Positions 3,595 through 35,618 of a DNA stretch of 64,000 nucleotides are shown here, in pieces. A model generated the notes under the pieces. It did not search any database, was not told where the DNA came from, and saw only the letters and a list, made by a program, of their open reading frames with translations. The stretch is taken from the IMG/VR virus record IMGVR_UViG_3300021310_000004; one strand, 5' to 3'. Position numbers and translations under genes: made by a program. Position 1 is the first letter of the stretch. Every line of letters begins with the position of its first letter. The DNA is from a virus (lineage: Duplodnaviria; Heunggongvirae; Uroviricota; Caudoviricetes).

Positions 3595-3598
3595 TAAT

Positions 3599-7535: not shown

Positions 7536-8407
7536 TACTGTGCTCCGTATAGGATTCTTGCTAACTCGGAATTCTTATCCAGGATCAATGTCTTATTGTC
7601 GCCGGCCATAGCCTTCATAGCGTCCAAGCTTCTTTGATAATTGTAAAAGTCCGCTTTGGATTCATCGTTATAAGCATCAGACAAGATTCGCATATACTCT
7701 GCTTCACCCTCTGCAACTAACTTCGCCGCATCACTCTTTGCAGCTGCCTTTGTAATAGAAACCTGCTTATCCGTTTCGTTGCGGATCTTCTTTGCTTCTG
7801 CCTCACCCTTTGCGGCGTAGCTTGCGGCAATATTATTTCGTTCTGAAATCATACGCTCGTATACAGCAGCCTTATTATCGTCCGGCAGATCTAACGCCTT
7901 GATTTCAGCAGACTTAATCTCAATACCATACTGATCAATATCAGAATTTGCCTCGTCTGTGATCATCTTTGTAAGAGTATCGCCTCTTGCTGCAATGATT
8001 TCATCCTGTGTCATTGAAGAAATCGTATTTTTGGTTGCGTTATAGACGTTCGCCTCAATACGCTCTTCTGCTCTTGCTTTTACACCAACAAGTGTACGAT
8101 AATAAGCCACCGGATCCTTAACAGTCCAAATGACAACGTCATCCGCAATCATAGACTTCTTATCGGATGTGATTACGTCACTGGTCGGAATATCGTACAA
8201 ATTGTCACCGGTATAAATCTTAGCTACGCTCTCAATAAATGGCGTCTTAAAATGCATGCCGGTATCTTCTACCGTGTATTTTGCCTTTCCAAGATGAAGA
8301 ACAATAGCAGTTTCATTTGGCTTTACTGTGTAGGCGGATGCTGTAAACAAGATGAGTCCAGCAAAAAACGCTACACCAAAAAGAATCAAGGATAATACCT
8401 TTTTCAT
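7535..8407 (-). CDS. SPFH/band-7 domain membrane protein, HflC-like
   Basis: N-terminal TM helix; band-7 core (ETAIVLHLGKA... PVAYY); C-terminal coiled coil. Confidence 0.6.
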   Translation of the reverse strand: MKKVLSLILFGVAFFAGLILFTASAYTVKPNETAIVLHLGKAKYTVEDTGMHFKTPFIESVAKIYTGDNLYDIPTSDVITSDKKSMIADDVVIWTVKDPVAYYRTLVGVKARAEERIEANVYNATKNTISSMTQDEIIAARGDTLTKMITDEANSDIDQYGIEIKSAEIKALDLPDDNKAAVYERMISERNNIAASYAAKGEAEAKKIRNETDKQVSITKAAAKSDAAKLVAEGEAEYMRILSDAYNDESKADFYNYQRSLDAMKAMAGDNKTLILDKNSELARILYGAQ

Positions 8408-8419
8408 AACTTCCTCCTT

Positions 8420-9343
8420 TTACTGTGCAAATGTATCAAGTGGTAACATCGTCTGAGTTGACCCGTCAGTAACAATTACCTTTAGGCCTGGCAAAATGCT
8501 TTCCATTGTCTCGTAAAACATTCTCTTCTTCGTAATGGCCGGATACTTCTGGTACTCTTCATAGGTTTGATTAAAACGAGCAACCTGACCTTCGGCCTCA
8601 GCAATACGCGCCTGCTTCTTACCCTCTGCCTTCTGTCTAATTTCGTCAGCTTTTGCTTCAGCTGCAGGAATCTGTTCATTCTGGTACTGTAATGCATTGT
8701 TCTTTGCAGTATCGGCGCCCTGCTTTGCAGTTTCGACCGCTTTAAATGCAGCCTTGATTTCGTCTGTAGGTGGCTCAGAGTCCTGAATCGTAATATTCAC
8801 TACTGAAAGACCAATGTCTCGCTGCTTTAAGGACTTGTTAATTGCCTCCTTAATATCCGCCTGAATCTTGTTCTTACCGGTGGTCATCGCTTCATCCACA
8901 GTATAGTTGGATACAACCGTACGAATATCCGCCAACGCGGTGTTTACCATGATTTCTTCCGGTTCCTTCGAGTTATAAAGGTACGCAACTGGATCCGTAA
9001 TGCGATACTCCAGGTAAAAATCGATATTGAGCAAGTTAAAATCGCTCGTAATCATAATGCCGTTATCGGCATCTTCTACATTTTGGCCATCGTCAGATAT
9101 TTCGTATCCAAGTCCGGTACCATGTGTAGTAATATCAACCTTCTTCACCTTTTGCCATGGAGCTTTCACATGAAGACCGGCAGTATCTACTCGAAGGACT
9201 TCACCAAACTGCGATACGACAGCATTCTGTGTCTCTTTTACTCCATAAAAAGTGCGGAAAAGACAGATAATGGCGAATAACCCTAATAAGCCAAAGATAA
9301 TCATCTTTCCAATTGTGCTTGGTTCAATTTCATAATCATTCAT
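8420..9343 (-). CDS. SPFH/band-7 domain membrane protein, HflK-like
   Basis: TM helix then band-7 domain (VVSQFGEV..., LEYRITDPVAYLY), coiled-coil tail; paired with HflC-like gene. Confidence 0.6.
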   Translation of the reverse strand: MNDYEIEPSTIGKMIIFGLLGLFAIICLFRTFYGVKETQNAVVSQFGEVLRVDTAGLHVKAPWQKVKKVDITTHGTGLGYEISDDGQNVEDADNGIMITSDFNLLNIDFYLEYRITDPVAYLYNSKEPEEIMVNTALADIRTVVSNYTVDEAMTTGKNKIQADIKEAINKSLKQRDIGLSVVNITIQDSEPPTDEIKAAFKAVETAKQGADTAKNNALQYQNEQIPAAEAKADEIRQKAEGKKQARIAEAEGQVARFNQTYEEYQKYPAITKKRMFYETMESILPGLKVIVTDGSTQTMLPLDTFAQ

Positions 9344-10610: not shown

Positions 10611-10673
10611 TAAATATGATTTGTGTATTCGAAAACAAAAAAATAGCAACGTTTATTTACGCTGCTAAGTAAC

Positions 10674-10745
10674 AGAGGCAACAGGACTCGAACCTGTAAC
10701 GTTGAGGATCAAAGCCTCATGTTCTACCAATTGAACTATACCGCA
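10674..10745 (-). tRNA. tRNA-Gln(TTG)-like (two acceptor-stem mismatches)
   Basis: T-arm ACAGGTTCGAGTCCTGT; anticodon loop CTTTGAT. Confidence 0.45.
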
Positions 10746-10749
10746 TTAA

Positions 10750-10838
10750 CGCTCGCTACAGGACTCGAACCTGTGGACCAAATTTCTTTGATCAACTGAT
10801 TAGCAATCAGCCGCATTCACCAACTCTGCCAAACGAGC
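10750..10838 (-). tRNA. tRNA-Ser(GCT), type II
   Basis: cloverleaf hand-folded; loop TTGCTAA; long variable arm. Confidence 0.5.
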
Positions 10839-10842
10839 ATAG

Positions 10843-10916
10843 CAGGGGTAGAACGATTCGAACGCTCATAGAATCTTTCGATTCACGGTTTTGGAGACCG
10901 CTGTTTTACCATTAAA
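10843..10916 (-). tRNA. tRNA with CCA anticodon (Trp) and unusually extended variable region
   Basis: acceptor AGGGGTG/TACCCCT, loop CTCCAAA, 16-nt hairpin variable region. Confidence 0.4.
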
Positions 10917-10932
10917 CTACACCCCTATATAG

Positions 10933-11012
10933 AGATCCAGGTGGGATTTGAACCCACAACAATGTCATCCCAGATTTGCAGTCTGGAGCCTTACCAGTTT
11001 GGCTACTGGATC
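10933..11012 (-). tRNA. tRNA-Cys(GCA)
   Basis: perfect acceptor GATCCAG/CTGGATC; loop CTGCAAA. Confidence 0.5.
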
Positions 11013-11017
11013 ATAAA

Positions 11018-11099
11018 CGCCGTACACAGGATTCGAACCTGCAACCCATTACTGGGCCATGATTTTCAAGACCACTTCCTCACCACCCGGACATACGGC
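11018..11099 (-). tRNA. tRNA-Ser(TGA), type II
   Basis: loop CTTGAAA; variable hairpin CCCAGTAATGGG. Confidence 0.5.
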
Positions 11100-11103
11100 A
11101 TAT

Positions 11104-11250
11104 GAAATGAAACGCTGTGTCTGGGACTTGATTCTCAGCTACCGCTTCGGTCGGTGCTTCTACTTCGTAGAGGTGTCCACTGGACACCCGCACCCCAGAA
11201 GCCATCGCTGGCACCGGCTTTCGAGGTCGGTGTGTTTACCATATTCCACC
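11104..11250 (-). ncRNA. GC-rich structured spacer (stacked perfect hairpins GGTGTCCagtGGACACC, CTTCTACttcgTAGAAG) between tRNAs
   Basis: hairpins read directly; no ORF (11059..11397 ORF rejected). Confidence 0.3.
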
Positions 11251-11264
11251 AACACAGCTTATAG

Positions 11265-11346
11265 CGCCACCGATAGGATTCGAACCTATATACCCGTTAA
11301 GGCTACTGCGTTCCAAGCAGCTGCTCTACCATTGAGCGACGATGGC
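11265..11346 (-). tRNA. tRNA-Ser(GGA)-like, type II
   Basis: loop TTGGAAC, T-arm ATAGGTTCGAATCCTAT. Confidence 0.4.
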
Positions 11347-11577
11347 ATTAAAAAAGCACTCATTCAATTCATGGAGAAAAGAACAAGTGCCTTCTAGCTA
11401 AAATATATACTTAGTGCCGGAATACCGGTCATAATGTACCATTTTTGTTCCCATGAATCGTAACTATTGAATTTGCACCACAAATAGACCAACGACAAGA
11501 CTGTGATTGGCTACTAATGCTCTGTGAAATTCGTCTAATTACTAAGTTCTTCATGGTTTTTATTCCTTTCTACATTA

Positions 11578-11955
11578 TTATCTAAATTTGTAATATCGAT
11601 TTTCTTTCGTAAACATAGAAATATCTCCAGATGACATTCCGCTTTGTTCTTCTATTGATATCACAGGATGCCATACAGGGAATGGTTTTCCATGTATTAC
11701 ATGTGGCTGAAATCTGCAACGATATATTTTACCATCTACAATCCACTTCAATCCTCTAAATTCGAACAAAAGTCCATTAGCAGCGCTTCCAACGCAACAA
11801 AAATCTCCAGGACGAATAAAATCAGAAACTATAGACATGTTTATTCCATCTTTATTTTGCACTGCCTTTTCGATGATACTGTATAACAACTCTATTTCAG
11901 CGCTGCTATATTCAAATGGTTCAATCATATTTATGTTCCTTTTTACAAGAATCAT
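11578..11955 (-). CDS. hypothetical protein
   Basis: ORF between tRNA blocks. Confidence 0.35.
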   Translation of the reverse strand: MILVKRNINMIEPFEYSSAEIELLYSIIEKAVQNKDGINMSIVSDFIRPGDFCCVGSAANGLLFEFRGLKWIVDGKIYRCRFQPHVIHGKPFPVWHPVISIEEQSGMSSGDISMFTKENRYYKFR

Positions 11956-12060
11956 TCCTTTCTCATTCTCTCCGCAAAGAGCGAGCTTTCATCAAGCCGA
12001 TAATACGACGCATCGCTTACCGTGCCGCTATGGCTATCCGAAGATACCGACGGGATATAG

Positions 12061-12135
12061 TTGCGGATATGGGAGTCGAACCCACTATTTCAAGTTTATG
12101 AGGCTCGTGTGATAAATCCGTTTCACTCATCCGCA
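12061..12135 (-). tRNA. tRNA-Met(CAT) family (Met/fMet/Ile2 not distinguishable)
   Basis: perfect acceptor TGCGGAT/ATCCGCA; loop CTCATAA. Confidence 0.55.
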
Positions 12136-12136
12136 A

Positions 12137-12209
<73 letters not shown>

Positions 12210-12300
12210 ATATTGGGGCGGTTGGCGAGACCGTTTTCTGCTCTTGGCTTCCCAAAGCCTCAAAGTGTTTTCCCTGGGAACATACACATAACCCACGTAA

Positions 12301-12374
12301 TGATTCCAGGGAGACTCGAACTCCCATTTCCGACTTGAAAGGCCGGTGAACTAGACCAGTTATTCGATGGAACC
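12301..12374 (-). tRNA. tRNA-Glu(TTC)
   Basis: loop CTTTCAA. Confidence 0.6.
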
Positions 12375-12459
12375 ATATTAGCGGAATCCTGGGTTTCTAC
12401 CAGTGTTTACCTCGCTCCGAATATCGGGGCAAGGGCTTGCGTTAGGCAAATCCCGCCAG

Positions 12460-12532
12460 AACAGGTAACGGGGATCGAACCCGTGTATCCGACTTGGCAA
12501 GCCGGTGCTTTAACCAACTAAGCTACACCTGC
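12460..12532 (-). tRNA. tRNA-Gly(GCC)
   Basis: loop TTGCCAA. Confidence 0.6.
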
Positions 12533-12666
12533 ATATCCGGTGCAAATTGATATCATGGCCGGGATATCAATCCATAGGTACTTCTAACCGGACGTACCCA
12601 AACCCCTGTCTTGGCCTTCGACTTGACTCACAAGAGTCTGACATTGCCATAGGAATTGCAACGTTA

Positions 12667-12752
12667 GGGTGAAGGAGGAGACTTGAACTCCCACGGGATT
12701 TCTCCCGGCGGATCCACAATCCGCTGCGTCTACCAATTTCGCCACCGACACC
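12667..12752 (-). tRNA. type II tRNA-like with Leu-like body but GTG (His) anticodon reading; acceptor has 2 mismatches
   Basis: GTGGCGAAATTGGTAGACGC D-arm, loop TTGTGGA, long variable arm. Confidence 0.3.
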
Positions 12753-12892
12753 ATAGGTGCAGCAACGGTTCCCGCCGGGAAGCCTTTTGACTTCGGAGCC
12801 ACCGCTACACCATAAGCATAATGCCAACGTATTATATACATCCGCGTTGGTTCGGATTCAGCCCATAGCCACACAAAGGATAGCCGGGTAGT

Positions 12893-12964
12893 TGGAATGA
12901 CAGGGTTTGAACCTGCGACCTCTTGATCCCAAATCAAGCGTTCTCCCAAACTGAACTACATTCC
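12893..12964 (-). tRNA. tRNA-Pro(TGG)
   Basis: loop TTTGGGA; clean cloverleaf. Confidence 0.65.
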
Positions 12965-13137
12965 AATATGGTCTATAGGATAACTACTGGCGTCCTGCCC
13001 AGCATTTAACTCATTTCATATCCTGCGTTCTCTGTCAAAGACCCGTGACAGGCTTTCTTTAGCGGATTAGCTCGCTCCTACCACCTAGACATCGCCCTTT
13101 CAGACTTTGCCATTTCGCGAATGATGGATTCGGATCA

Positions 13138-13208
13138 TGCCCCGCGATGGAATCGAACCACCGACTTCTTCTTGTAAGGGAGACGTATTCCCATTATACT
13201 AGCGGGAC
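13138..13208 (-). tRNA. tRNA-Val(TAC)
   Basis: loop CTTACAA. Confidence 0.55.
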
Positions 13209-13242
13209 AAATAGTTATTTTGAATGGAATTTCTTTCCAGCG

Positions 13243-13315
13243 TGCCTGCACTGGGGCTTGAACCCAGGATCTTCGGATTAAGAGTCCGCTGCTCTCCCAT
13301 CTGAGCTACACAGGC
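13243..13315 (-). tRNA. tRNA-Lys(CTT)
   Basis: loop CTCTTAA. Confidence 0.6.
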
Positions 13316-13333
13316 GTATTTCATATTCACTTA

Positions 13334-13370
13334 TAATACGTATCATTGCGATGCGTTTTGTGACAAAATG
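13334..13370 (-). promoter_or_regulatory. class A bipartite motif upstream of tRNA block
   Basis: TAATACGTATCATTG-N8-TTTTGTGACAAAA. Confidence 0.5.
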
Positions 13371-13440
13371 CGCCTGACAGGATTCGAACCTGCGATATAC
13401 CGGTTAAAAGCCGGTTGCCATACCACTTGGCTACAGACGC
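13369..13440 (-). tRNA. tRNA-Lys(TTT)
   Basis: loop CTTTTAA. Confidence 0.6.
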
Positions 13441-13555
13441 CCATTTACTTTGGTTTTCGATACTTTCGTTTCTGTTTTCGCTTCATTGTTATACCTCTAT
13501 TCTTTTTAGTACATGTTCAACAATAGCTGAACGGCTTATAAGTTCCCAATATGTT

Positions 13556-13810
13556 CTATCCATTCGACTCGATTTCAAACTCAATCATTGATAATAGTTT
13601 TTTTAAAGCAGCCGATTCATCACTGGTAGACAACCGAATCCTTTGCCGGCCACGTTCATCATTGATATAAACATCATACATATTACTATCTGGATTCAAA
13701 CAGTATCCCATAACAAACCCGGCCTTACTATTTTCTTCCAGTATTACATCCCACATACCAATTTCGGCCTTCTTCTCGTTAATTATGTTCAAATATTCTT
13801 CCTTGTTCAT
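13556..13810 (-). CDS. hypothetical protein
   Basis: ORF inside tRNA region with plausible start context. Confidence 0.4.
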   Translation of the reverse strand: MNKEEYLNIINEKKAEIGMWDVILEENSKAGFVMGYCLNPDSNMYDVYINDERGRQRIRLSTSDESAALKKLLSMIEFEIESNG

Positions 13811-13863
13811 TTATAAATCCTCTATCCATATACAACCAGGATATATTTATACCTTTTGAGGAA

Positions 13864-13937
13864 TACCCCTTCCGAGATTCGAACTCGGAAAAACTTGATT
13901 TTGAATCAAGCGTGTATGCCAGTTCCACCAAAGGGGC
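13864..13937 (-). tRNA. tRNA with CAA (Leu) anticodon but short (type I) variable loop
   Basis: loop TTCAAAA; variable TTTTT; discriminator A. Confidence 0.4.
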
Positions 13938-13941
13938 CTAG

Positions 13942-14022
13942 TACAGGTGAAGGGATTCGAACCCTCAAGCTCTAGGCCACCTGATCCTAAGTCAGGCCTC
14001 TGTTCCATTCGAGTACACCTGC
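13942..14022 (-). tRNA. tRNA-Leu(TAG), type II
   Basis: loop CTTAGGA; long variable arm. Confidence 0.5.
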
Positions 14023-14027
14023 ATAAG

Positions 14028-14112
14028 TGCTCCCGATGGGACTTGAACCCATACGTCATTTAAGACCTCGGTTTTTAAGACCGATGCGTGCTGCCAATTA
14101 CGCCACGAGAGC
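14028..14112 (-). tRNA. tRNA-Leu(TAA), type II
   Basis: loop CTTAAAA. Confidence 0.5.
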
Positions 14113-14199
14113 ATGTGCTATTCAGTTTTAAGTTCATAAGTCGGAGTCGTAATCGTAACAACATCGTTTTTTAATTCCTTTCTTTTAATATCTATAAAG

Positions 14200-14282
14200 A
14201 GCTCCGTGTAGGATTCGAACCTACGTGAGGTTTCCCTATCTGCTTACAAGGCAGGTGCAATCGTCCACTATGCGAACGGAGC
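14200..14282 (-). tRNA. tRNA-like, anticodon reading TGT with 14-nt variable region (atypical)
   Basis: acceptor GCTCCGT/ACGGAGC, loop CTTGTAA. Confidence 0.35.
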
Positions 14283-14349
14283 ATATAATAGATTAGAACT
14301 GCGATGTTCCGATTGGATACGGTTAGTCCACAGACTAATCTATTTTAAG

Positions 14350-14421
14350 AGCACTATACGGGATTCGAACCCGTGTCCCCGGCTTGGAAGGCCAGAATCT
14401 TGACCACTAGACGAATAGTGC
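14350..14421 (-). tRNA. tRNA-Gly(TCC)
   Basis: loop CTTCCAA. Confidence 0.6.
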
Positions 14422-14533
14422 ATATGTGAAAGTCTTTTGCGGTGGCAATCAACGCCAAACCTATTATCCATTCTGGATCGTGGCTCCTGCACCATTGTTG
14501 CTTTGTTCCTATCGGGACCCGCGACTTTCACAG

Positions 14534-14606
14534 TGGAGTATACGGGGATCGAACCCGCCATCTTCTGGTTGCAAGCCAGACGGCACCCCATTGCGCCTTA
14601 TACCCC
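14534..14606 (-). tRNA. tRNA-Ala(TGC)
   Basis: loop CTTGCAA. Confidence 0.6.
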
Positions 14607-14609
14607 ATA

Positions 14610-14690
14610 TATTACGGTGTACTGTAGCCGGATTCGAACCGGCGCATCACTACCACTGTAGCTGCCTTAACCGCTTGGCTATACAGCGCC
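14610..14690 (-). tRNA. tRNA-like element, anticodon undetermined
   Basis: T-arm GCCGGTTCGAATCCGGC, D-arm AGCCAAGCGGTTAAGGC; anticodon arm non-canonical. Confidence 0.3.
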
Positions 14691-14798
14691 TGTAACCTTC
14701 TATAATCTCTTAGGCACCGTGTCATTAGGGCTAATTAACTATAGGACCAGCAAGACGTACTAAAATCTGACTAAAAATTAGTACCGCTTGGAATTAAG

Positions 14799-14872
14799 CG
14801 ACTACAGTGGGACTCGAACCCACGATCTCCTGATAGACAGTCAGGCGGATTAACCAACTCTCCTATGCAGCC
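14799..14872 (-). tRNA. tRNA-Asp(GTC)
   Basis: loop CTGTCTA. Confidence 0.6.
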
Positions 14873-14954
14873 ATATCATCCGGAGCCTTTCTTACTCCGG
14901 ATATATTATTTTTGTTCGTAGATAAAGAAGTGCCTGTTTTCTTATATCCACTAA

Positions 14955-15027
14955 TCACCTCTGTGGGATTCGAACCCGCGTTTCGAGATTGAGAATCTCG
15001 TATCCTAGGCCTCTAGACGAAGAGGTG
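14955..15027 (-). tRNA. tRNA-Glu(CTC)
   Basis: Glu-type D-arm TCGTCTAGAGGCCTAGGA; loop TTCTCAA. Confidence 0.55.
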
Positions 15028-15047
15028 ATTCATAATGTTCACAGAAT

Positions 15048-15150
15048 CAATGCAGATGGATTCGAACCACCGCTCTATCCGCCCTGTCCGGGCGTTGTTT
15101 TGCCTTTGGAGTATGTCGGCTCCTACAAACTATACACCGTATGTGAACAT
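15048..15150 (-). tRNA. long tRNA-like element (about 100 nt), anticodon undetermined
   Basis: T-arm GGTGGTTCGAATCCATC; no canonical fold found by hand. Confidence 0.25.
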
Positions 15151-15248
15151 TATCTTCTGCCGTATTGATTACACCTCTTGTCCTCAGAGGAATCGACAGG
15201 ACTTGTACCCAACATACTTGGACTTTGTACATCGAATACAAGAATTCA

Positions 15249-15321
15249 GTGTCCCCGGATGGAATCGGACCACCGCGTTCCGGGCTTCAACCGGATGCTC
15301 TGCCAACTGAGCTACAAGGAC
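15249..15321 (-). tRNA. tRNA-Phe(GAA)
   Basis: stem TCCGG/CCGGA loop TTGAAGC. Confidence 0.55.
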
Positions 15322-15431
15322 TTGTTTGAAGCATTAAAGTCGCTTCAATTCACTGCGTATTTTATTAAGGTAACATTTGCTCTAACCCTTCGCGCCAGAT
15401 AAAACATATGTTAAACCCGGTACGAGTCCCA

Positions 15432-15515
15432 AGCCAGAGAGTCGAACTCTGCGAGCACAAGTGCGGAGGATTTACAGTCCACCCCGTCTCCGTAACGGTT
15501 TAGCAAGGGTTACTT
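15432..15515 (-). tRNA. type II tRNA-like, GTA (Tyr) anticodon reading; acceptor imperfect
   Basis: loop CTGTAAA; T-arm CAGAGTTCGACTCTCTG. Confidence 0.3.
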
Positions 15516-15602
15516 ATATTGGTTGCTATAATAATAATCAACCATACTATCACCTTCCTTTTGTATTTGTTTTGATAAAGGGTGCCTGTTCCTTCATCGT
15601 AG

Positions 15603-15675
15603 CGGGTCCAACAGGCTTCGAACCTGTGACCTTCCGGTTAACGGCCGGACGCTCTACCAACTGAGCTATGGATCC
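15603..15675 (-). tRNA. tRNA-Asn(GTT)
   Basis: loop CCGTTAA. Confidence 0.6.
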
Positions 15676-17724: not shown

Positions 17725-18773
17725 TGAATAATCTACTAGTTGTAGACGGTTCTGCGCTGTTGAATATCATCTTTTTCGCATCCATTAGTGACGTGTCGAA
17801 GCAAATCAAGGACGTTGATGTTGTGGATCAGGTTATTGATGGATATTTCCGCACCGGGCACGGTCATTACACCGAGAATGTCGGTGCGTTTATTTCAATG
17901 GTGCTCACATTAAAGAGACAAACCATCTCTGATTCCGTTGTTGTTTGCTTTGATAAAAGCTCTGATTCTACATTTCGTAAGAAACAGTATCCGGCCTACA
18001 AAGCAAATCGTAACAGACGTCCCAAGGCAATTAAGGACCAGATGAAGGTGCTGCACTGCATCTTAAACAATGTTGGTATCAAGTGTTTTTGGGCTGATCA
18101 GTTTGAGGCGGATGATCTGGCTGGTTCTATTATCCAGCACTTTAAAGGTGAGTTCGATAATGTGTACTTTTACACAAAGGACCGGGATTGGTTCCAGTTA
18201 TTGGACGAGAATGTCAAGGGTATCATCCCAATGAGATCTGAGGATGAAGCTGATGGCTTCCGCTGCTACTATCAGGGCGTAGAAGAAAACGACCCATTTA
18301 AGCGCGGTGGTGCAAAGGCTGTCGGTAGAAATTTATGTGTGACGAAAGACATATGTAAAGAACTGTTTGGCGTGTATCCAGAACAGGTTGTTGATTTTAA
18401 GGCACTTGCTGGCGACAAATCAGATAATATTCCTGGAGTAAAGGGCGTAGGTGATGACACCGCAAGAGCGCTCTTAGACTTATTTGGAACGTTGTCTGGT
18501 GTGTATAATCAGGTTGATTCTTGTACCGAGGATTCATTTAAGTCTTCTACAAAGGCTTATATGAAACGGAGCCCATATAAGAATCTTGTTGCCGGGAAGC
18601 AAAGCGCATATGAATCTTATTGGTTAGCTACAATTAAGACCGATATTCCGATTCCATATGCTGCTTCGTATTTGTCTTGTAACATCGATTTAGACGTTTT
18701 GCGACAGGCGATTGAAATCTACAATCTGGAGAGCGATTTGGATTGGTTCGTTAAACCGGAACTGTCTTATTAA
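17724..18773 (+). CDS. 5'-3' exonuclease / flap endonuclease (PIN + H3TH)
   Basis: LLVVDGSALL..., ALAGDKSDNIPGVKGVG H3TH motif. Confidence 0.75.
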   Translation: MNNLLVVDGSALLNIIFFASISDVSKQIKDVDVVDQVIDGYFRTGHGHYTENVGAFISMVLTLKRQTISDSVVVCFDKSSDSTFRKKQYPAYKANRNRRPKAIKDQMKVLHCILNNVGIKCFWADQFEADDLAGSIIQHFKGEFDNVYFYTKDRDWFQLLDENVKGIIPMRSEDEADGFRCYYQGVEENDPFKRGGAKAVGRNLCVTKDICKELFGVYPEQVVDFKALAGDKSDNIPGVKGVGDDTARALLDLFGTLSGVYNQVDSCTEDSFKSSTKAYMKRSPYKNLVAGKQSAYESYWLATIKTDIPIPYAASYLSCNIDLDVLRQAIEIYNLESDLDWFVKPELSY

Positions 18774-18786
18774 ACCAAAAAGAAAG

Positions 18787-18816
18787 AAGCCCTTTATTGA
18801 GGCTTCTTTTTTATTT
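18787..18816 (+). terminator. rho-independent terminator (GAAGCCCtttattgAGGCTTC + T-run)
   Basis: hairpin plus T-run immediately after flap-endonuclease gene. Confidence 0.6.
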
Positions 18817-18979
18817 CCTTTTCAAGTTCTTCTACTCGTTTCTCAAGATTACTCATCTCACTTGCCATTTTGTATATATAGATGCATAATCCGATCAAAA
18901 ATGCGATGCATACAATCACCAGTACGATGAGGTAAAAATCATGAAGATGTGCCATCATGAACAAATAAATACTATCCAT
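18794..18979 (-). CDS. small membrane protein with coiled-coil tail
   Basis: hydrophobic helix + LEKRVEELEKEIKK. Confidence 0.35.
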   Translation of the reverse strand: MDSIYLFMMAHLHDFYLIVLVIVCIAFLIGLCIYIYKMASEMSNLEKRVEELEKEIKKKPQ

Positions 18980-19059
18980 AGAGTACTCCTTTCTGATTCC
19001 GATTATATCAGATTCTTCGTAAAAAGAAAGAAGCCCCAGAATGAGGCTCCTTTATGATG

Positions 19060-19521
19060 TTACTGTAATAGTTCGGAAACATGATGTGCATCAACACCCA
19101 GCTCGGATGCACCAAGTACCAGTGAATACGTATCATCCATATAGTAGATGTCTTCGCTCTGTACTTCGTCAGCATATGCTTTTAAGATTTTAAGTTTATC
19201 TTCGTCTTTTGCTACGTAAAACTGATGCATCGATGGGAAATATTCCTTATAGTTATTCTCGATGAACTTTCTTTTGCTACGAATAGCATCCTCTAAGGAT
19301 TCTGTTGAGAGTACAAATAGCGTTACTCCCTGTGCCACAAAGGAATCTAACAATTCCTTCACACATTTTGGTGCTCTACAATCCCGGTACACATCATCCG
19401 ATTCACTTGTAACCTCGGCCCATTGTTCGGCCGAATATCCAGGTTTAATACAACCATCGACCGTAAATCTTGGAACCGACAAAACGCCGTCAATATCAAA
19501 GAACGCTGCTTTGTAATTCAT
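19060..19521 (-). CDS. HAD-superfamily hydrolase (nucleotidase-like)
   Basis: FFDIDGVL motif I. Confidence 0.5.
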   Translation of the reverse strand: MNYKAAFFDIDGVLSVPRFTVDGCIKPGYSAEQWAEVTSESDDVYRDCRAPKCVKELLDSFVAQGVTLFVLSTESLEDAIRSKRKFIENNYKEYFPSMHQFYVAKDEDKLKILKAYADEVQSEDIYYMDDTYSLVLGASELGVDAHHVSELLQ

Positions 19522-19535
19522 GTAGCACCTCCAAT

Positions 19536-20324
19536 CTACGGCCGCATATAGGACGGCATTAATCTAAGTTTATGTAGATTTGCACGATGCTTATGCTCGA
19601 TCAAATCAACTAGGTCCTCACTTATCGGGCATCTAGTTTCAGACTTAGCCTCGGATTCCTTCCAGATGATGTACGCATCTAGGTCATCATACGTGAATCC
19701 AAGATTGTCTTCATCGGTCTTTCCACACAGCCCGTCAGATGGGACCTTATGAACCAGATCCGCTGGAAGCTCAAGGTAATCACCAATGGCCCGGATGTCC
19801 GATACCAAAAAGTCCTGTAATACAGCAATATCACCTGCTGCATCGCCATACTTTGTGGAATATCCCACATAATCCTCGGACCGGTTGCAGGTATTTACTA
19901 CAAAGGCCGGAACATTAAAGCTCTGTGCTACTGCATACAATGTTGTCATACGGATACGAGGTGCAAGATTAATGATCTGCTGCTCGGTACGATTTACACC
20001 GGATACCTTTAGGGCCTTCTGGAAGGCCTTGTATGGGTCTAAAATGTTAACGGTAACACGTTCTATGCCTAACATATCACAAACTCGCATTGAATCGGAA
20101 ATATCACTTTGAATACCGTTCGGCATTAAAACACCAACTACACGTTCTTTTCCAATCGCTCTAACCAACAGAGCTGCAGCTACAGTCGAATCCTTACCAC
20201 CAGAGATGCCAATTACTGCCTTGGAATCCTCGGAGAACTGGTTGAACCAGTTCCTCAAGAAACCAATTAACTTCGGAGTTACATTTGTTACGTCGATACT
20301 CGTCATCACAAACCTCCTACTCAT
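19536..20324 (-). CDS. nadE: NH3-dependent NAD+ synthetase
   Basis: PP-loop GISGGKDSTVAAAL; family-typical length. Confidence 0.8.
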   Translation of the reverse strand: MSRRFVMTSIDVTNVTPKLIGFLRNWFNQFSEDSKAVIGISGGKDSTVAAALLVRAIGKERVVGVLMPNGIQSDISDSMRVCDMLGIERVTVNILDPYKAFQKALKVSGVNRTEQQIINLAPRIRMTTLYAVAQSFNVPAFVVNTCNRSEDYVGYSTKYGDAAGDIAVLQDFLVSDIRAIGDYLELPADLVHKVPSDGLCGKTDEDNLGFTYDDLDAYIIWKESEAKSETRCPISEDLVDLIEHKHRANLHKLRLMPSYMRP

Positions 20325-21525
20325 GATCCAAGCGCCACTTTAATGTACGCTGCAGATAATCTACATACTCAGCATCCTTGCACATGCACTTGCCCGGTGT
20401 ATCGCTGATTTTAGCTACCGGATGGCCATTACACTCGGTCGTCTTCATTACGATATTAAGTGCCGGTTCCTTCGTATCATTACTGATATAAGTTCCAATA
20501 CCAAATGCTACATTGATGCGGCTGTTGAAGTGATAGAACAATGCAGAAGCACGATCAAAATCCAAGCTATCACTGAACAATAAGGTCTTAGTCTTAGGAT
20601 CTACACCAAGAGCTTCGTAATGCTTAATCATCTTCTCGCCCCACTCATACGGATCACCAGAGTCGTGACGAACACCTGAGAATAAGGTCGCGAATGTAAG
20701 CTGAAAATCCTTTAAGAATACATCTGTGGTTACGGTATCGGTCAATGCGATACCATTCATAACACTGTACTCTTTAACCCATGCATCGAGTGCAAACCAG
20801 TTGGAGTATGCAGCATTGTGCTTATTATCACCCTGACCTACACACATGATATACTCATGAGCCATGGTTCCAACCGGTGTAATGCCGAACTTCTTTGCAA
20901 GGTACACATTGGACGTTCCAATGAAGTTAGAACTTACATTCTTGGTTGCTTCAATCAGTGCCTTAATAGCAAGTTCCTGTGCTTCTGCAGACAATCTACG
21001 ACGAAGTCCGAACTCAGAGAATGTACCAAGATACAAGGATTGAGCCTTCACGCGGTCACACTTTGCGGCCAAACGTTCCTTAAAGGAATCCAGCAGCTCA
21101 TCATAATCAAAGCCCATTCTAAAGTAGACCTCATTTACGATTGCAAGAGTTGGAATCTCATACATGGAACTGTTCAGCCAGGTACTCTTTGCCTCGATAG
21201 ACAAGCCACATTCTGCATCGGCACTAATCTCAAAATCCTCATATCGTGGATGCCACAAACGAAGATAATCGATGTAGTCCGGCTTCAGCCACTTGATCTT
21301 ACGCAGGTAACCCAATTCGTCCTCTGTGAACACGAGCGCACAATATGCACGAATCTGTTCCTTAATTTCCTCTACCATGTCCTTGGTAAAATGAACGTCC
21401 TTGTTACGGCACTTGAATGTCCAAGTGGTTGTGTATCCAGGGAACTGATGGTAAATTACCTGTCCCATGGAAAACTTGTATAAATCGGTTTCTAACAATG
21501 AATTGATAATCTGGTTACATTTCAT
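20317..21525 (-). CDS. pncB: nicotinate phosphoribosyltransferase
   Basis: colinear PncB motifs: LLETDLYKFSM, GIALTD, GVRHDSGDP, KTLLFSD, AFGIGT, ECNGHPVAKISDTPGK. Confidence 0.85.
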   Translation of the reverse strand: MKCNQIINSLLETDLYKFSMGQVIYHQFPGYTTTWTFKCRNKDVHFTKDMVEEIKEQIRAYCALVFTEDELGYLRKIKWLKPDYIDYLRLWHPRYEDFEISADAECGLSIEAKSTWLNSSMYEIPTLAIVNEVYFRMGFDYDELLDSFKERLAAKCDRVKAQSLYLGTFSEFGLRRRLSAEAQELAIKALIEATKNVSSNFIGTSNVYLAKKFGITPVGTMAHEYIMCVGQGDNKHNAAYSNWFALDAWVKEYSVMNGIALTDTVTTDVFLKDFQLTFATLFSGVRHDSGDPYEWGEKMIKHYEALGVDPKTKTLLFSDSLDFDRASALFYHFNSRINVAFGIGTYISNDTKEPALNIVMKTTECNGHPVAKISDTPGKCMCKDAEYVDYLQRTLKWRLDHE

Positions 21526-21581
21526 AATATTTATTCTCCTTTCTTATGTACCATTTTTATTTATCGATGTTAAATATGGTA

Positions 21582-22109
21582 CTATTTACGTCGGCGCCAA
21601 TTTTCATGTGCTTCTAAGAAATCCGGAGCAATCATATCGCGGTACTGATCCGTGTTCTCTCGAATCATGGTACCGGATACTTGAATCTTACTTCTATCCA
21701 ATAATACGAAGTTATGGTTCGGATAAACCTGCTGCAACTTCTCGATATAAGAGGCTTCGCCCGTGTACCAGGTATATTCTTTGGATTCGTCATTCGGATC
21801 TAGCCAAGCGTTACGAAAGAATTCTTTCCCCCAGATAGACCAAGCATCTACGGAAAATGTACCTGTTAATCCGATTTCATGATCGTCAACAATAGTAATA
21901 AAGACGTTCTTATCGTCATGATATCGTCTTAACATTAACTTCCATCGACCTTCAAACGGTAGGTACTCTTGTCCTCGGTCGCTATCATATCCGCATACAC
22001 CGATAACGATTCGATCATTCTCGTTCTTAGCTCTTTCAATCATTGATAAGTGGCCCTTGTGCAACGGGATAAAACACCCGAAGCACAGACCAATTCTTTC
22101 CTTACTCAT
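21582..22109 (-). CDS. nicotinamide/nicotinate-mononucleotide adenylyltransferase (NadM/NadR-type)
   Basis: GCFIPLHKGHL nucleotidyltransferase motif. Confidence 0.7.
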   Translation of the reverse strand: MSKERIGLCFGCFIPLHKGHLSMIERAKNENDRIVIGVCGYDSDRGQEYLPFEGRWKLMLRRYHDDKNVFITIVDDHEIGLTGTFSVDAWSIWGKEFFRNAWLDPNDESKEYTWYTGEASYIEKLQQVYPNHNFVLLDRSKIQVSGTMIRENTDQYRDMIAPDFLEAHENWRRRK

Positions 22110-22632
22110 TTACCACCTCAATATGACATGCCTTCATTGCCTGTAATGCCGTATTATGGCTCTCCTTGGTTACGCCGGCGCAACCTGCTGCATCTACGAT
22201 AATTCTCGTATTCGGTCTTGCTGCCTTGGCCAGCATGACATTGGAAATGACACAGATATCGGTACATACACCAACAAACTCGATAGACTCAAGTTCATAT
22301 GCGTAGTCAGCGAAGAAATCGCACAATTCCTTGGATCCGAATGTTTCCTTGTCAAACAAGTAATCTTCATCCACGTACGGCTTTAACTCATCAACGATCT
22401 CAAATCCTTCGCTTCCCTCAATACAATGCGGTACTGGAAGGTGCTGGCCTTCAATGGTATTCATGTAATCATCCTGGTGCATATCTCTTGTGAAGATAAT
22501 CAAATCTCCATCTTCAGTAGCCTGTTCCAGCTTCTTCTTAATGTACGGAATCACGGCAATCGCGTCCTCATTACGAAGCGCTCCGGTTGTGAAATCATTC
22601 TGCATATCAATTACTACTAACACTTTACTCAT
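22102..22632 (-). CDS. pncA: isochorismatase-family hydrolase, probable nicotinamidase
   Basis: VVIDMQNDF, catalytic Cys in VCTDICV; position within NAD salvage block. Confidence 0.65.
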   Translation of the reverse strand: MSKVLVVIDMQNDFTTGALRNEDAIAVIPYIKKKLEQATEDGDLIIFTRDMHQDDYMNTIEGQHLPVPHCIEGSEGFEIVDELKPYVDEDYLFDKETFGSKELCDFFADYAYELESIEFVGVCTDICVISNVMLAKAARPNTRIIVDAAGCAGVTKESHNTALQAMKACHIEVVNE

Positions 22633-22634
22633 CC

Positions 22635-23456
22635 CTAATTTCCTCCTACATATGTAAATTCAGTTGATTGTCTACCACTCGCCAAATCGGACTTTTTTAC
22701 GTTTCCGGTTTCGACGATTTTATGTTCTACGAGCCGCTTTAATGATGCCTTATAAATATCCTGGCCCATTACGGCCCGATATGTTGCTCGAAGTTCCGCC
22801 ATTGTAAATGTGGCCGGCACCAAACAGAACATGTTATCCGAATAATCAAATCCGGCTCGAAGCTTTTTCATCGCTTCAATTATTATTTCCACATGATCAA
22901 ACGCCAATTTCTCGTCCGATACTAATGTGGGAATGTAATTCTGGTACGTAAGTACGGAATTCTTAAACGACTTTTCCTTCAAACTGTACTTAATAGTGAC
23001 GTTCTTCTCATCGTTTCTTAAAATAAGCTCCGTATCTTTGAACACCAGATCAAACCATGCAGCATCTGCAGCATCGTCTTGACCAGTAACGTCTTCAAGA
23101 TTCGATACCAGTGCCATATAAGCGATACTCATTACCCACATACGAGGGTCACGTCCAGGTTTTGTGAATGTATAAATCTGATCCAAATAAGCTTTCTTTA
23201 AACCGGTTTCCTCATACAGCTCTCTTTGTGCCGCCTGAAACGCTGTTTCATTCTCTTCAATGAATCCGCCCGGTAGTGCCCAGCAATTCATATACGGGTG
23301 ATTTCCGCGTCTTATTAACAGGATTTTCAAATTGGTATAACCTGGAGCCATTCCAAGTACCAAGATATCTGTCGTTACGGATGGACGCTTATAATCGCCC
23401 GGATTATATTGCTCTAAAAACTCGGATTCTGTTAATCCATCTTTGTTACGAAGCAT
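22635..23456 (-). CDS. NUDIX hydrolase (ADP-ribose/NAD-metabolite pyrophosphatase-like)
   Basis: Nudix box GGFIEENETAFQAAQRELYEETG. Confidence 0.7.
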   Translation of the reverse strand: MLRNKDGLTESEFLEQYNPGDYKRPSVTTDILVLGMAPGYTNLKILLIRRGNHPYMNCWALPGGFIEENETAFQAAQRELYEETGLKKAYLDQIYTFTKPGRDPRMWVMSIAYMALVSNLEDVTGQDDAADAAWFDLVFKDTELILRNDEKNVTIKYSLKEKSFKNSVLTYQNYIPTLVSDEKLAFDHVEIIIEAMKKLRAGFDYSDNMFCLVPATFTMAELRATYRAVMGQDIYKASLKRLVEHKIVETGNVKKSDLASGRQSTEFTYVGGN

Positions 23457-23543
23457 ACGTTCCCTCCTTACTATTTAGTTAAGTATCAATCTGTTACTTA
23501 TCTTTATGTATAATATACCCCTAATTAAGTATCAAGTCAATAC

Positions 23544-24146
23544 TTAATTTTCAGTGAGTTTTTCATCATAATCGTCCAGCCATTCAATTATACTATCAGC
23601 AGCTTTATATAAATCGAATGCTCTTTTCTCCTTTTTCTTTTCTTCCGACATATCGTCTTTAAAATTATCGCAATACACTAAACTGTAACACGCTTTCAGT
23701 TCAGGAAAGATCTCATTTACACGAACACCATGCCGTACATCCTTAAAAACATTCGATTTTAGAAACTCCGTCATATCGTCCATGGTATGTATTCCGTTCT
23801 CTTCGAGTTCGTCCTTAGATAATGGAATGTACACAGCTGCTCTAAGAATACTTAGTATGATTATATGTTTTTTCACAAAATCAATAATACATATCAAAAC
23901 AACAAACAGCCAAGCAATCGCCAAATCGACACAAAGTCCTGCGATAATATAGTCCACAAAACTCGGTTTATGAACCGACATATTAAAAAGTTTGGATACA
24001 ACTGAGGAAAAAATGAAATATCCTAATCTACCTGACAACGGCAGGGTGAATATCATTGCTGCGACTACAATTACGGTAATTGCGCTCGATATACTATCGA
24101 GTCTCATGATATATTTCCAAATACTTGTTTTCTTCTTTAAGTTCAT
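23544..24146 (-). CDS. membrane protein (hypothetical), start refined to MNLKKK
   Basis: AAAAGGAG RBS; TM helices; class A motif just upstream. Confidence 0.45.
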   Translation of the reverse strand: MNLKKKTSIWKYIMRLDSISSAITVIVVAAMIFTLPLSGRLGYFIFSSVVSKLFNMSVHKPSFVDYIIAGLCVDLAIAWLFVVLICIIDFVKKHIIILSILRAAVYIPLSKDELEENGIHTMDDMTEFLKSNVFKDVRHGVRVNEIFPELKACYSLVYCDNFKDDMSEEKKKEKRAFDLYKAADSIIEWLDDYDEKLTEN

Positions 24147-24183
24147 AATCGATTTGCTCCTTTTTAATCTTATGTTTGCAATA

Positions 24184-24224
24184 ATAATACGTATCATTGT
24201 TCCTGGTTATGTGACAAAAAAAGA
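24184..24224 (-). promoter_or_regulatory. class A bipartite motif
   Basis: TAATACGTATCATTG-N9-TTATGTGACAAAAA. Confidence 0.45.
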
Positions 24225-24256
24225 GCCGAAATCTTCGACTCTCTTTTTATTCGTAA

Positions 24257-25465
24257 TTATGCGGCCTTTTCAAGCTTTGCTCTTTCTTTCATTTCCTTTT
24301 GGAATGCACGATATCGCATTGTAAATGCATATGCCGGCCCGAAAACGAATCTCATTGCTTTGTACATCTGCGGCTCGCAAAGAGAAGCATAATTAAGCTC
24401 TGCATTGATATCCTGTCCAAATGGGCATCCGAGGCATCCAGTACGTGGCAGATAATCGTACAATTTTGAGTGGTTTATACCACAATACTTGTCGTATTCC
24501 TTCTTATCTGCATCCAAGTACCAAAATACCGGTCGATACTCATCGTACGGATGAGAAGATGCATCATTAAAGCAAGACTTATATGCGGCAGCTCTAACTC
24601 CGCCCTCACTTTTACGAACACCCTGGATAGATAACTGCGGGTTTAATGCCTCTGTTACTTCTTTGATAGTGTCTTTTTTAGATAATTTACAACACTTATT
24701 GGCAACTCGGAACGGAACCCCGCCTTCCTCAATTAAGAACTCTTTTAACCAAGTATTGTGGTTAATGTTGAACATGGAATCATCAGTTTCTGACTTCTTA
24801 TTGCACCACCATTCTAGGGCAGATACACATCCTTTGTACCATCCGGAACCAATCTTCTTGTACTTACCGTTGTCCCGAATGCCTAATTCGATTTCTTCGG
24901 CTGAACGCTCGTCTAGCTTATTGCAATACTTCTCGCAAAGAGCTTCCAGATCATCTGTATCATCGTATTCGAATCCATATTTTTGCAATCGCATTAAGAA
25001 TTCGGATACCTGTTTCGAGAGAAATGGAATTCCTTCTTTACGTACGGCAAGTGGAATTGGCGTTTTGGCCTTAAATCGGTGAATCTTAACCTGGTACTTA
25101 AGCTGCAGGTAGTCAATATGTTCCTTTGTGTACTTGGATTCTAGTCTGGTATCAATAAAGAAATAGAATACTTTGCGATCCGGATCACATCGTCTTAACA
25201 AATCAAGAACGATGTCAGAATCAGATCCTCCGGAAATGGAACAGCAAATTCGACCGGATTCATACAGTCTAGAGTTAATCTTGGACCAGCACTTGGATGC
25301 GTTTGTAATAACCGTATCGTTTGCCGGAAGCGTCTCAAAAACGTCCATCATTCCACGTTCTTTATTGTTGAGCAAATTGTGTAGTTCCCATTCTGCACGA
25401 GTAGGAACGTTAAAATTAAGATGTTTTTTAGCGTAATAGTAAGTAGCATTGAATGTACGAGCCAA
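24257..25465 (-). CDS. PP-loop ATP pyrophosphatase, PAPS-reductase family protein (long form)
   Basis: SISGGSDSD PP-loop; C-terminal CLGCPFG cysteines. Confidence 0.6.
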   Translation of the reverse strand: MARTFNATYYYAKKHLNFNVPTRAEWELHNLLNNKERGMMDVFETLPANDTVITNASKCWSKINSRLYESGRICCSISGGSDSDIVLDLLRRCDPDRKVFYFFIDTRLESKYTKEHIDYLQLKYQVKIHRFKAKTPIPLAVRKEGIPFLSKQVSEFLMRLQKYGFEYDDTDDLEALCEKYCNKLDERSAEEIELGIRDNGKYKKIGSGWYKGCVSALEWWCNKKSETDDSMFNINHNTWLKEFLIEEGGVPFRVANKCCKLSKKDTIKEVTEALNPQLSIQGVRKSEGGVRAAAYKSCFNDASSHPYDEYRPVFWYLDADKKEYDKYCGINHSKLYDYLPRTGCLGCPFGQDINAELNYASLCEPQMYKAMRFVFGPAYAFTMRYRAFQKEMKERAKLEKAA

Positions 25466-34012: not shown

Positions 34013-34156
34013 CTTTGTTTTTATTCTCCTTTCTGCGATGGTAATAGTTTTGTTACGGATTAAATATGAGCAAGGTAAATGGCACAAAAAAAAAGAGGCC
34101 CGAAGGCCTCAATTCATGAATGGAGAACTTAACGTGCGGTCTGCACGCTAAGCAAG

Positions 34157-34229
34157 ACGCAGAGGTAGGAATCGAACCTACGACCTCCAGGTTATGAGCC
34201 TGGCGAGCTGCCGCTGCTCCACTCTGCAA
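34157..34229 (-). tRNA. tRNA-Met(CAT) family
   Basis: loop CTCATAA. Confidence 0.55.
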
Positions 34230-34323
34230 CATTGGCACCAAATCATTGGTACCAACATGAGAATGCCCGCAAATTCAATAACATTGCGGATTTGGCTAGA
34301 AGTATTTGCACTTTTATTGTGCA

Positions 34324-34395
34324 GTGACTCTTACGGGAATCGAACCCATGTTACCGCCGTGAAAGGACGATGTCTTAACCGCTTGACCAAAGAGC
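34324..34395 (-). tRNA. tRNA-like, Glu-type (TTC reading), anticodon stem imperfect
   Basis: loop region CTTTCAC; D-arm TGGTCAAGCGGTTAAGACA. Confidence 0.35.
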
Positions 34396-34535
34396 CAGAA
34401 GGCGGTACCACTGCCGCGTTAATACCGTAGCAGAGGTACCAATTTTGTTAAAAGTAAGTAGTGCATTATACCTATTTAGTCATTATTGCAATGCGTTGGG
34501 GGAGGTGAGAAAATTCGCACCGCAACAACAACGAA

Positions 34536-34621
34536 CGCAGTATCCAGGATTCGAACCTGGAAACCGATTGCTCGGATGGCGGATTTCGAATCCGCTGCTG
34601 TACCAATTGAGCCAATACTGC
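34536..34621 (-). tRNA. tRNA-Ser(CGA), type II
   Basis: perfect acceptor GCAGTAT/ATACTGC; loop TTCGAAA; long variable arm. Confidence 0.55.
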
Positions 34622-34805
34622 ATATGCAATCCATAAAAACACCCTTCACGTCCTAATACTTACGACGATCAATCGAATTCCGGATTGCGATACCGAGTAG
34701 CACCATTTGTTCGAACCGCAGGTGATATCGGTATCAATTTTTCTGAAAGTATTACGCAAAGCGGTTCTCGGAATAACGCACTTCGCATCTTTCTATTAGG
34801 ATGAA

Positions 34806-35617: not shown

Positions 35618-35618
35618 A

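Follow-up and report, generated by a model that had tools for sequence, protein, structure and literature searches.

A run of six genes at positions 19060-23456 of a 64,000-nt stretch of DNA catalogued as viral (IMG/VR record IMGVR_UViG_3300021310_000004; the whole stretch is called the window below) raises the question of whether a phage can carry its own complete route for rebuilding nicotinamide adenine dinucleotide (NAD+), and of how such a set of genes would be controlled. An earlier note on this DNA had described six contiguous, co-directional and partly overlapping genes in a phage-like genome. The same coordinates were recovered here, with all six open reading frames (ORFs) on the minus strand. 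We consider it likely that they form a single transcription unit on a phage-like element, a salvage operon for nicotinamide and nicotinate that is regulated by NrtR and is of the kind found in Lachnospiraceae.

The leading gene of the cluster encodes a protein that had been taken for a NUDIX hydrolase recycling ADP-ribose-type products. The Nudix domain is certainly there (PF00293, E 3e-16), with an intact Nudix box (GFIEENETAFQAAQRELYEETGL, which fits GX5EX7REUXEEXGU) whose residues are invariant across seven phage and host homologues. However, the protein also carries the NrtR winged helix (PF21906, NrtR_WHD; 29.4 bits vs cut-off 27), and its closest solved structures, 2FML and 3GZ5, are both of the NrtR family, with a second aligned stretch to 3GZ5 that spans residues 183-251. 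The best NCBIfam model is NF050029, 'ADPR responsive transcriptional repressor', although its 128 bits are far under the equivalog cut-off of 400. By its domain composition the protein belongs to the NrtR regulator family and is not simply an ADP-ribose recycling hydrolase. It is known that an intact Nudix box correlates with residual ADP-ribose pyrophosphatase activity in this family (Rodionov 2008, PMC2330246), and the Nudix box of the window protein could also destroy ADP-ribose.

Directly upstream of nrtR two 23-bp palindromes, TTAAGTAT-N7-ATACTTAA, flank a sigma-70-type promoter (Table 1). The perfect form TAAGTA-N9-TACTTA occurs twice in the window, where 0.01 occurrences would be expected, both times within the 87 bp that precede nrtR. 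To compare operators, NrtR homologues of 62-79% identity were traced to their contigs, which are given by their L numbers. Paired predicted operators, 39-47 bp apart, are conserved in nine lineages, namely the window and L019, L020, L021, L031, L036, L037, L038 and L042. Three more phage-like lineages, L020 (contig of 72 kb), L021 and the jumbo-phage-like L031/L032 (contig of 239 kb), have the order O1, TATAAT, O2 and ribosome-binding site ahead of nrtR. The layout recurs in four rumen or gut contigs of Lachnospiraceae-type metagenome-assembled genomes (MAGs; L036, L037, L038 and L042), and the isolate Pseudobutyrivibrio sp. YE44 (L019) has it in front of its chromosomal operon pncA-pncB-nrtR-pnuC-nadR. 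The nine-way alignment shows conserved half-sites and conserved -35 and -10 boxes, TTGAC(A/T) within O1 and TATAAT between the sites, in the midst of diverging flanks. In about 577 kb of compared loci, sites with at most one mismatch are confined to the position upstream of the operon. The binding sites of NrtR proteins are palindromes of about 21 bp in front of NAD genes, from which ADP-ribose releases the proteins, a relief of DNA binding known for the Shewanella and Synechocystis proteins (Rodionov 2008, PMC2330246). From this family knowledge the window NrtR probably binds DNA as well, with ADP-ribose as its probable inducer.

Table 1. Position of the NAD module, its control elements and other features in the window.
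Feature	Coordinates	Strand	Description
nrtR	22635-23456	-	273 amino acids (aa); Nudix domain and C-terminal winged helix
pncA, nicotinamidase	22102-22632	-	176 aa; PF00857, aligned to 1ILW
NadR-type NMN adenylyltransferase domain	21582-22109	-	175 aa; without ribosylnicotinamide kinase domain
pncB, nicotinate phosphoribosyltransferase	20317-21525	-	402 aa; above equivalog cut-offs
nadE, single-domain NH3-dependent NAD synthetase	19536-20324	-	262 aa
Capless HAD-superfamily phosphatase	19060-19521	-	153 aa; membership in NAD pathway doubtful
Operator O1 (predicted), perfect 23-bp palindrome TTAAGTATTGACTTGATACTTAA	23525-23547	-	includes -35 hexamer
Operator O2 (predicted), ATAAGTAACAGATTGATACTTAA	23479-23501	-	just downstream of -10 box; 46 bp from O1, centre to centre
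Sigma-70-type promoter, TTGACT / 17-nt spacer / TATATT	23512-23540	-	10/12 positions match
Intrinsic-terminator-like hairpin and T-run, end of unit	19027-19053	-	12-pair stem
tmRNA	46404-46754	-	tag peptide ARSNVRPMAVAA
Full-length ROOL RNA (RF03087)	34861-35444	-	251 bits vs gathering score 99.1, E 5e-56
Tyrosine integrase	3464-4537	+	
IS-type transposase (phrog_506)	49841-51316	-	
Actin/ParM-like protein	52026-53105	-	

The six genes are packed closely: nrtR and pncA are 2 nt apart, the junctions of pncA with the adenylyltransferase gene and of pncB with nadE overlap by 8 nt each, 14 nt separate nadE from the HAD gene, and the single sizeable intergenic gap is the 56 nt before pncB. Tight or overlapping junctions, one promoter upstream and one terminator downstream argue that the genes are one transcription unit. 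Chance clustering can be set aside, because the gene set recurs on about 25 independent contigs. An Rfam scan of 18700-24300 detected no NAD riboswitch and no other RNA element in the module. For a 12-bp inverted repeat in the gap between the adenylyltransferase gene and pncB (21548-21582), the roles of a further NrtR site and of an RNA element were weighed and rejected; its fold is no better than that of shuffled sequences (z = -1.2), and L020 and L021 do not share it.

Three of the enzymes had been named from the letters alone, and these names hold. PncA (PF00857) can be aligned over its whole length to the nicotinamidase structure 1ILW, and the triad D9, K95, C133 and the metal site D50, H52, H69 are all kept; these six residues answer the doubt, left by the isochorismatase fold, of whether the protein is a nicotinamidase. 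Its match to the NCBIfam PncA equivalog is partial (38 bits vs cut-off 174). PncB exceeds two curated NCBIfam cut-offs (NF003704, 483 bits vs 379; TIGR01514, 429 vs 270), and the NH3-dependent NAD synthetase NadE, with its PP-loop SGGKDS, exceeds that of TIGR00552 (163 bits vs 63.65; PF02540, E 4e-50).

The adenylyltransferase is a different matter. It had been described as an (H/T)xGH enzyme for nicotinamide mononucleotide (NMN) or nicotinate mononucleotide (NaMN), and from this a complete four-step route from nicotinamide to NAD+ had been claimed. The enzyme (PF01467) does have the motifs HKGH and SGTMIR, but profile scores place it with the NMN type and not with the NaMN type: the top-scoring model is TIGR01526, the NadR NMN-adenylyltransferase domain (82 bits), and the top structure is PDB 6GYE (E 2e-20), whereas NadD models give 16-22 bits against cut-offs of 112-315. 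We therefore assign it as NadR-type and not as NadD; its identity to the NadR domain of the YE44 host is 23%. Since characterised relatives of NadR type act on NMN, the step from NaMN to nicotinate adenine dinucleotide (NaAD) would not be secured by the phage, and the route probably leans on host NadD. The claim of a complete route, which presumes a NaMN adenylyltransferase, accordingly goes too far.

In the modules compared, PncA, PncB and NadE are the constant core and the adenylyltransferase step varies. The NadR-type gene lies between pncA and pncB in the window, L020, L021 and L022-L024. A NadD-type gene lies between pncB and nadE in L002 and L004, and by position also in L011 and L026-L030; the NadD-type genes of other phage modules score 108.6-108.7 bits with TIGR00482 (cut-off 112.45). 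An NMN adenylyltransferase of the NadM/archaeal type is fused to the NrtR C-terminus in L001 (6041-7465) and L003 (7930-9384). Finally, in L031 and L032 (both 7384-7752) the NadR-type gene is reduced to a remnant of 122 aa, which is truncated at the N-terminus and lacks HxGH, while NrtR, PncA, PncB and NadE are intact in L031 and NadE is split into two calls in L032. This variability suggests that the adenylyltransferase step can be left to host NadD.

Some other peculiarities of these modules should also be mentioned. The NrtR fusions of the IMG/VR contigs L001 and L003 have the order Nudix, winged helix and NadM, which is reversed in relation to NadM proteins and includes the DNA-binding domain. 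In L022-L024 no NrtR was detected, and a plain Nudix gene resembling NudE or ADP-ribose pyrophosphatase, without winged helix, follows nadE (L022, 12494-13072). Several IMG/VR modules have a DUF5662 gene between pncA and pncB (L002, 6320-6856; L004, 8766-9383).

The sixth gene had been listed as a HAD phosphatase of the NAD module. The HAD fold and motifs are well founded, but its membership in the NAD pathway is doubtful. The protein itself has no Pfam match, and its relatives match PF13419. Motifs I-IV (D9/D11, T73, K83, D129/D130) are invariant in a family that is small, with 371 representatives among 1.84 billion proteins. The AlphaFold model (pLDDT 91.6) gives Foldseek matches to the capless phosphatases MDP-1 and T4 Pnkp with probability 1.0 and TM of about 0.6, and the protein is modelled as a capless HAD phosphatase. 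In the distant relatives L034 and L035 its homologues are found among unrelated phage genes, with no link to NAD genes, and L020, the nearest sister with a full module, has no homologue. A role as the ADPR-1''-phosphate phosphatase of an extended NARP1 pathway was rejected, that enzyme being a Macro-domain protein. In one of its relatives the phosphatase is joined to a P-loop kinase-like domain, reminiscent of polynucleotide kinase-phosphatase. Two neighbouring SPFH/Band-7 genes lie at 7535-9343 (minus strand) of the window, and the same pair is found near the HAD-family homologue in L035.

The module with its operators was, judging by similarity, captured from a Lachnospiraceae host. Identity to Pseudobutyrivibrio sp. 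YE44 is 85.6% for PncB, 63% for PncA and 64% for NrtR; among named organisms, Pseudobutyrivibrio and Lachnospiraceae have the NrtR proteins nearest to that of the window (64-76% identity), and named relatives come from Pseudobutyrivibrio, Lachnospira and Lachnospiraceae MAGs. The YE44 locus has the same architecture of paired operators and promoter. However, its gene order differs, and it has PnuC and a full NadR (adenylyltransferase and kinase) and no NadE. The Clostridium acetobutylicum operon #nrtR-pncA-#pncB-nadD-nadE, in which # marks a predicted NrtR site (Rodionov et al. 2008, PMC2330246), is alike in another way: nrtR leads and regulates its own expression through a palindrome in front of it, and pncA, pncB, an adenylyltransferase gene and nadE follow in one Firmicute operon. 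In contrast to it, the window has a NadR-type enzyme, placed between pncA and pncB, in place of nadD; a single promoter with two operators, pncB lacking a recognisable site of its own; an additional HAD gene; and a phage-like carrier.

The sequence comparisons described here show what the genes are, that their catalytic motifs are kept, how the operon is built, that its operators are conserved and that it came from a host. On this basis a mechanism can be proposed in which DNA binding by NrtR, induction by ADP-ribose, the substrate specificities and any benefit for the phage follow what is known of the respective families. NrtR dimers on O1, which contains the -35 box, and on O2, just downstream of the -10 box, would shut the promoter; the repressor may be the element's own or that of the host, because the operators are the same. 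After cleavage of NAD+, accumulating ADP-ribose would bind the Nudix domain, NrtR would leave the DNA and the operon would be expressed. PncA would then deamidate nicotinamide to nicotinate, and PncB would convert nicotinate, phosphoribosyl pyrophosphate (PRPP) and ATP to NaMN. NaMN would become NaAD most likely through host NadD, or through the encoded adenylyltransferase if this accepts NaMN, and NadE would amidate NaAD to NAD+. The NadR-type adenylyltransferase would in addition make NAD+ from NMN. More tentatively, since the operators match those of the host, NrtR from the phage might act on the host operon pncA-pncB-nrtR-pnuC-nadR too and reprogramme it.

Similar gene sets on phages are already known. 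In Bacillus phage G, a cultured jumbo phage (NC_023719), genes for PncA-like, PncB, adenylyltransferase and NAD synthetase proteins are led by the NrtR-family gp273 (PF00293 and PF21906, that is, Nudix and NrtR_WHD) in the region gp273-gp283. A 2025 paper on this phage lists gp273 as MutT/NUDIX hydrolase and gp275 as a protein of unknown function. Compared to the window, the genes of phage G are interspersed with unknown ORFs and a gene for a KptA-like RNA 2'-phosphotransferase (L043, 10880-11440), an NAD-consuming enzyme like the PARP-domain protein encoded near the L020 module, the adenylyltransferase is annotated as NadD, PncB is of the long, three-domain type, and NrtR is 32% identical, with no matching operator seen. 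Li et al. 2024 (PMC11662467) found that 174 gut jumbo phages have a full salvage or Preiss-Handler pathway, with pncB-nadD-nadE clusters among the cases, and suggested counter-defence. Those NAD-jumbo phages resemble our case in being gut or rumen phages with clustered pncB, nadD and nadE (plus pncA) and in the host-independent NAD+ synthesis proposed for them. The differences are that no regulator was reported there ('nudix' and 'NrtR' are absent from the text), that their predicted hosts are mainly Bacteroidota, and that the example cluster uses NadD. The surveys of Iyer, Aravind et al. (2021, 2022) described only NadV/NadM/NadR for phage systems, and the 2022 survey (PMC9503650) discussed NrtR-like sensors for host systems only.

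The phage pathways called NARP, to which the module had been likened, also end in NAD+. NARP1 consists of Adps and Namat, NARP2 of Nampt and an NMN adenylyltransferase/Nudix protein, and NARP3 of PnuC and a NadR-like protein; the NMN adenylyltransferases of the latter two belong to the same superfamily as that of the window. A scan of window ORFs, those of the cluster included, detected neither a PRPS-like Adps nor a Nampt or Nampt-like Namat. The NMN-type adenylyltransferase expected of NARP2 is present, but the phosphoribosyltransferase is a PncB equivalog with a weak match to the Nampt-type PHROG (3e-19). PnuC was not detected in that scan, and the 175-aa protein ends without a ribosylnicotinamide kinase domain, while the host operon has both. 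By gene content the module is not a member of NARP1, NARP2 or NARP3: in contrast to them its route would go through deamidated intermediates, would need NadE and would have its own regulator of the ADP-ribose type. No 'NARP4' in the sense of a PncA/PncB/NadE route was found in the literature searched. The statement that the module is more complete than NARP1 and NARP2 is not supported either. It corresponds to an ordinary bacterial NrtR-regulated Preiss-Handler operon (PMC2330246), captured from Lachnospiraceae, and phage clusters of this kind are already published (PMC11662467). The Preiss-Handler pathway on a phage is therefore known; what appears new is the ADP-ribose-sensing regulatory layer with operators matched to the host, together with the NadR-type adenylyltransferase.

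The element which carries the operon is large, rich in tRNA genes and phage-like, and the name phage for it is well supported but not proven. The identical NrtR is encoded on contigs of 50-200 kb. ARAGORN finds 35 tRNA genes in the window, in three minus-strand arrays (10673-15675, 34156-36996 and 41335-44738). Bro-N/Ant, several HNH endonucleases, a RuvC-like resolvase and a flanking flap endonuclease (FEN) are encoded as well, most window ORFs have no family match, and nearly all are on one strand. Integrase, transposase and ParM-like or partition genes are a hint of a temperate or plasmid-prophage lifestyle. The PHROG partition-protein family phrog_691 matches one scanned ORF (E 1.7e-35), presumably the ParM-like gene. 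Among the tRNA genes, the call at 42837-42929 has an odd 4-nt anticodon and several others are unusually long; Rfam adds candidates at 41335-41408 and 42304-42427, and the ROOL RNA adjoins a small tRNA cluster at 34156-34622. Two divergent PAPS-reductase-like genes (PF01507; 24257-25465 and 29715-30476, minus strand) are situated just upstream of the NAD operon, and in five IMG/VR contigs (L026-L030) a homologue with about 40% identity lies 5-9 kb from PncA-PncB-NadE.

Several observations weigh against a phage-borne NrtR operon as proposed here. The upstream gene (23544-24197) and the promoter have no terminator between them, so read-through could bypass the control. The operator core is GT-N11-AC and not the GT-N7-AC that is commonest in the family (PMC2330246), and the distant modules L001 and L003 (NrtR 43% identical) and phage G have no matching palindrome; as L013 has no convincing one either, operator conservation is limited to NrtR of at least about 62% identity. 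Bacteroides AraR (PDB 5BS6), which is among the structure matches, is an NrtR-family member that senses another ligand. The NadR-type adenylyltransferase misfits the classical Preiss-Handler route. Moreover, no capsid, portal, terminase, tail or other virion gene was found among the scanned ORFs of the window, and in this respect the stretch could as well be a bacterial chromosome, a plasmid or a conjugative element with ordinary cellular NAD salvage. Database searches are in accordance with such an origin: searching the module at the nucleotide level against 50,697 phage records gave just one weak match of 122 bp, and the window FEN has no close relative in the IMG/VR collection searched. Related contigs have PcfJ- and LPD-type domains, which conjugative elements carry too. 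For the window NrtR, too, IMG/VR yielded no close relative, so that the lineage of the window is absent from that collection. Three flanking proteins of the window, looked up by exact match in order to extend the contig towards virion genes, had no match on record, and a 1208-aa window protein had none in phage records. Nevertheless, we regard a non-phage carrier as quite improbable in view of the tRNA genes, tmRNA and ROOL RNA, the Bro-N/Ant, HNH and resolvase genes in a largely unmatched and one-stranded setting, and the analogous modules on IMG/VR viral contigs of 100-280 kb and in the cultured phage G.

The misfit of the adenylyltransferase would vanish if NadE acted as an NMN synthetase (NaMN to NMN) and the NadR-type enzyme then turned NMN into NAD+, in which case the module would be self-sufficient without NadD. 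The NMN type of the adenylyltransferase speaks for this order, as does the best solved-structure match of NadE, 3FIU (121 bits), which we take to be the Francisella NMN synthetase (the search output names no organism). There is also a precedent for NadD replacement going together with an NMN-synthetase NadE (PMC3376133). However, the margin of 3FIU over the conventional archaeal NadE 2E18 (114 bits) is trivial, the window NadE is nearer to the NadD-adjacent NadEs of other phage modules (42-49% identity) and to Pseudobutyrivibrio NadE (52%), and in L031 the adenylyltransferase has lost HxGH while NadE is intact. Similarity does not favour this order, and we think it has little chance of being correct. 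As for the purpose of the NrtR-regulated operon, it may rebuild NAD+ after attack by NADase effectors such as Thoeris ThsA, DSR or SIR2-HerA, with derepression by ADP-ribose making the anti-defence inducible. This is plausible by analogy, since NARP1, NARP2 and NARP3 have experimentally beaten NAD+-depleting defence through NAD+ reconstitution, and the effector products nicotinamide and ADP-ribose would be the substrate of the pathway and its predicted inducer. ADP-ribose-related genes are also found near sister modules, a PARP-domain gene about 10 kb upstream of the L020 module (L020, 1-181) and a microbial PARG-like gene about 1.4 kb downstream of nadE in L031. On the other hand, the route needs three ATP-consuming steps, PRPP and a host enzyme, pncA and pncB are already present in the host, and the literature searched yielded no test of a PncA/PncB/NadE module as anti-defence; counter-defence is for these reasons a possible role to which we would not give an even chance. 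The more specific idea, that the operon stays silent until NAD+ is cleaved, for example by a NADase immune effector, and then fires as a damage-sensing counter-defence, is tentative and rather unlikely. The operon may instead top up NAD+ for the element's own consumption, or be a host-regulated moron which helps a lysogen or plasmid-prophage carrier, independently of immunity. In NAD-jumbo phages, Li et al. 2024 (PMC11662467) argue, synthesis of NAD goes together with enzymes of replication and repair that consume it, the integrase and the actin-like partition gene suggest a temperate or episomal life, and with a host-type promoter and operators the operon would follow host NAD homeostasis. 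Yet no NAD-dependent ligase, ADP-ribosyltransferase or sirtuin is found among the scanned window ORFs, and the host already encodes salvage genes, so that such metabolic support is a possible but somewhat doubtful role.

The significance of the operon is limited by its being host-derived and of a well-understood type. Rebuilding of NAD+ by phages through NARP1-3 is a current focus of the phage-defence field, and the deamidated PncA/PncB/NadE route is already listed for metagenomic jumbo phages and annotated in phage G. Across such modules the adenylyltransferase step appears as the variable, host-dependent part. 'MutT/NUDIX hydrolase' labels on genes of this kind, including gp273 of phage G, should become NrtR-family regulator. 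The sensor-regulator of one widespread phage lineage of Lachnospiraceae, with the same operators as in the host, would give a testable model for how reconstitution of NAD+ may be timed to its cleavage.

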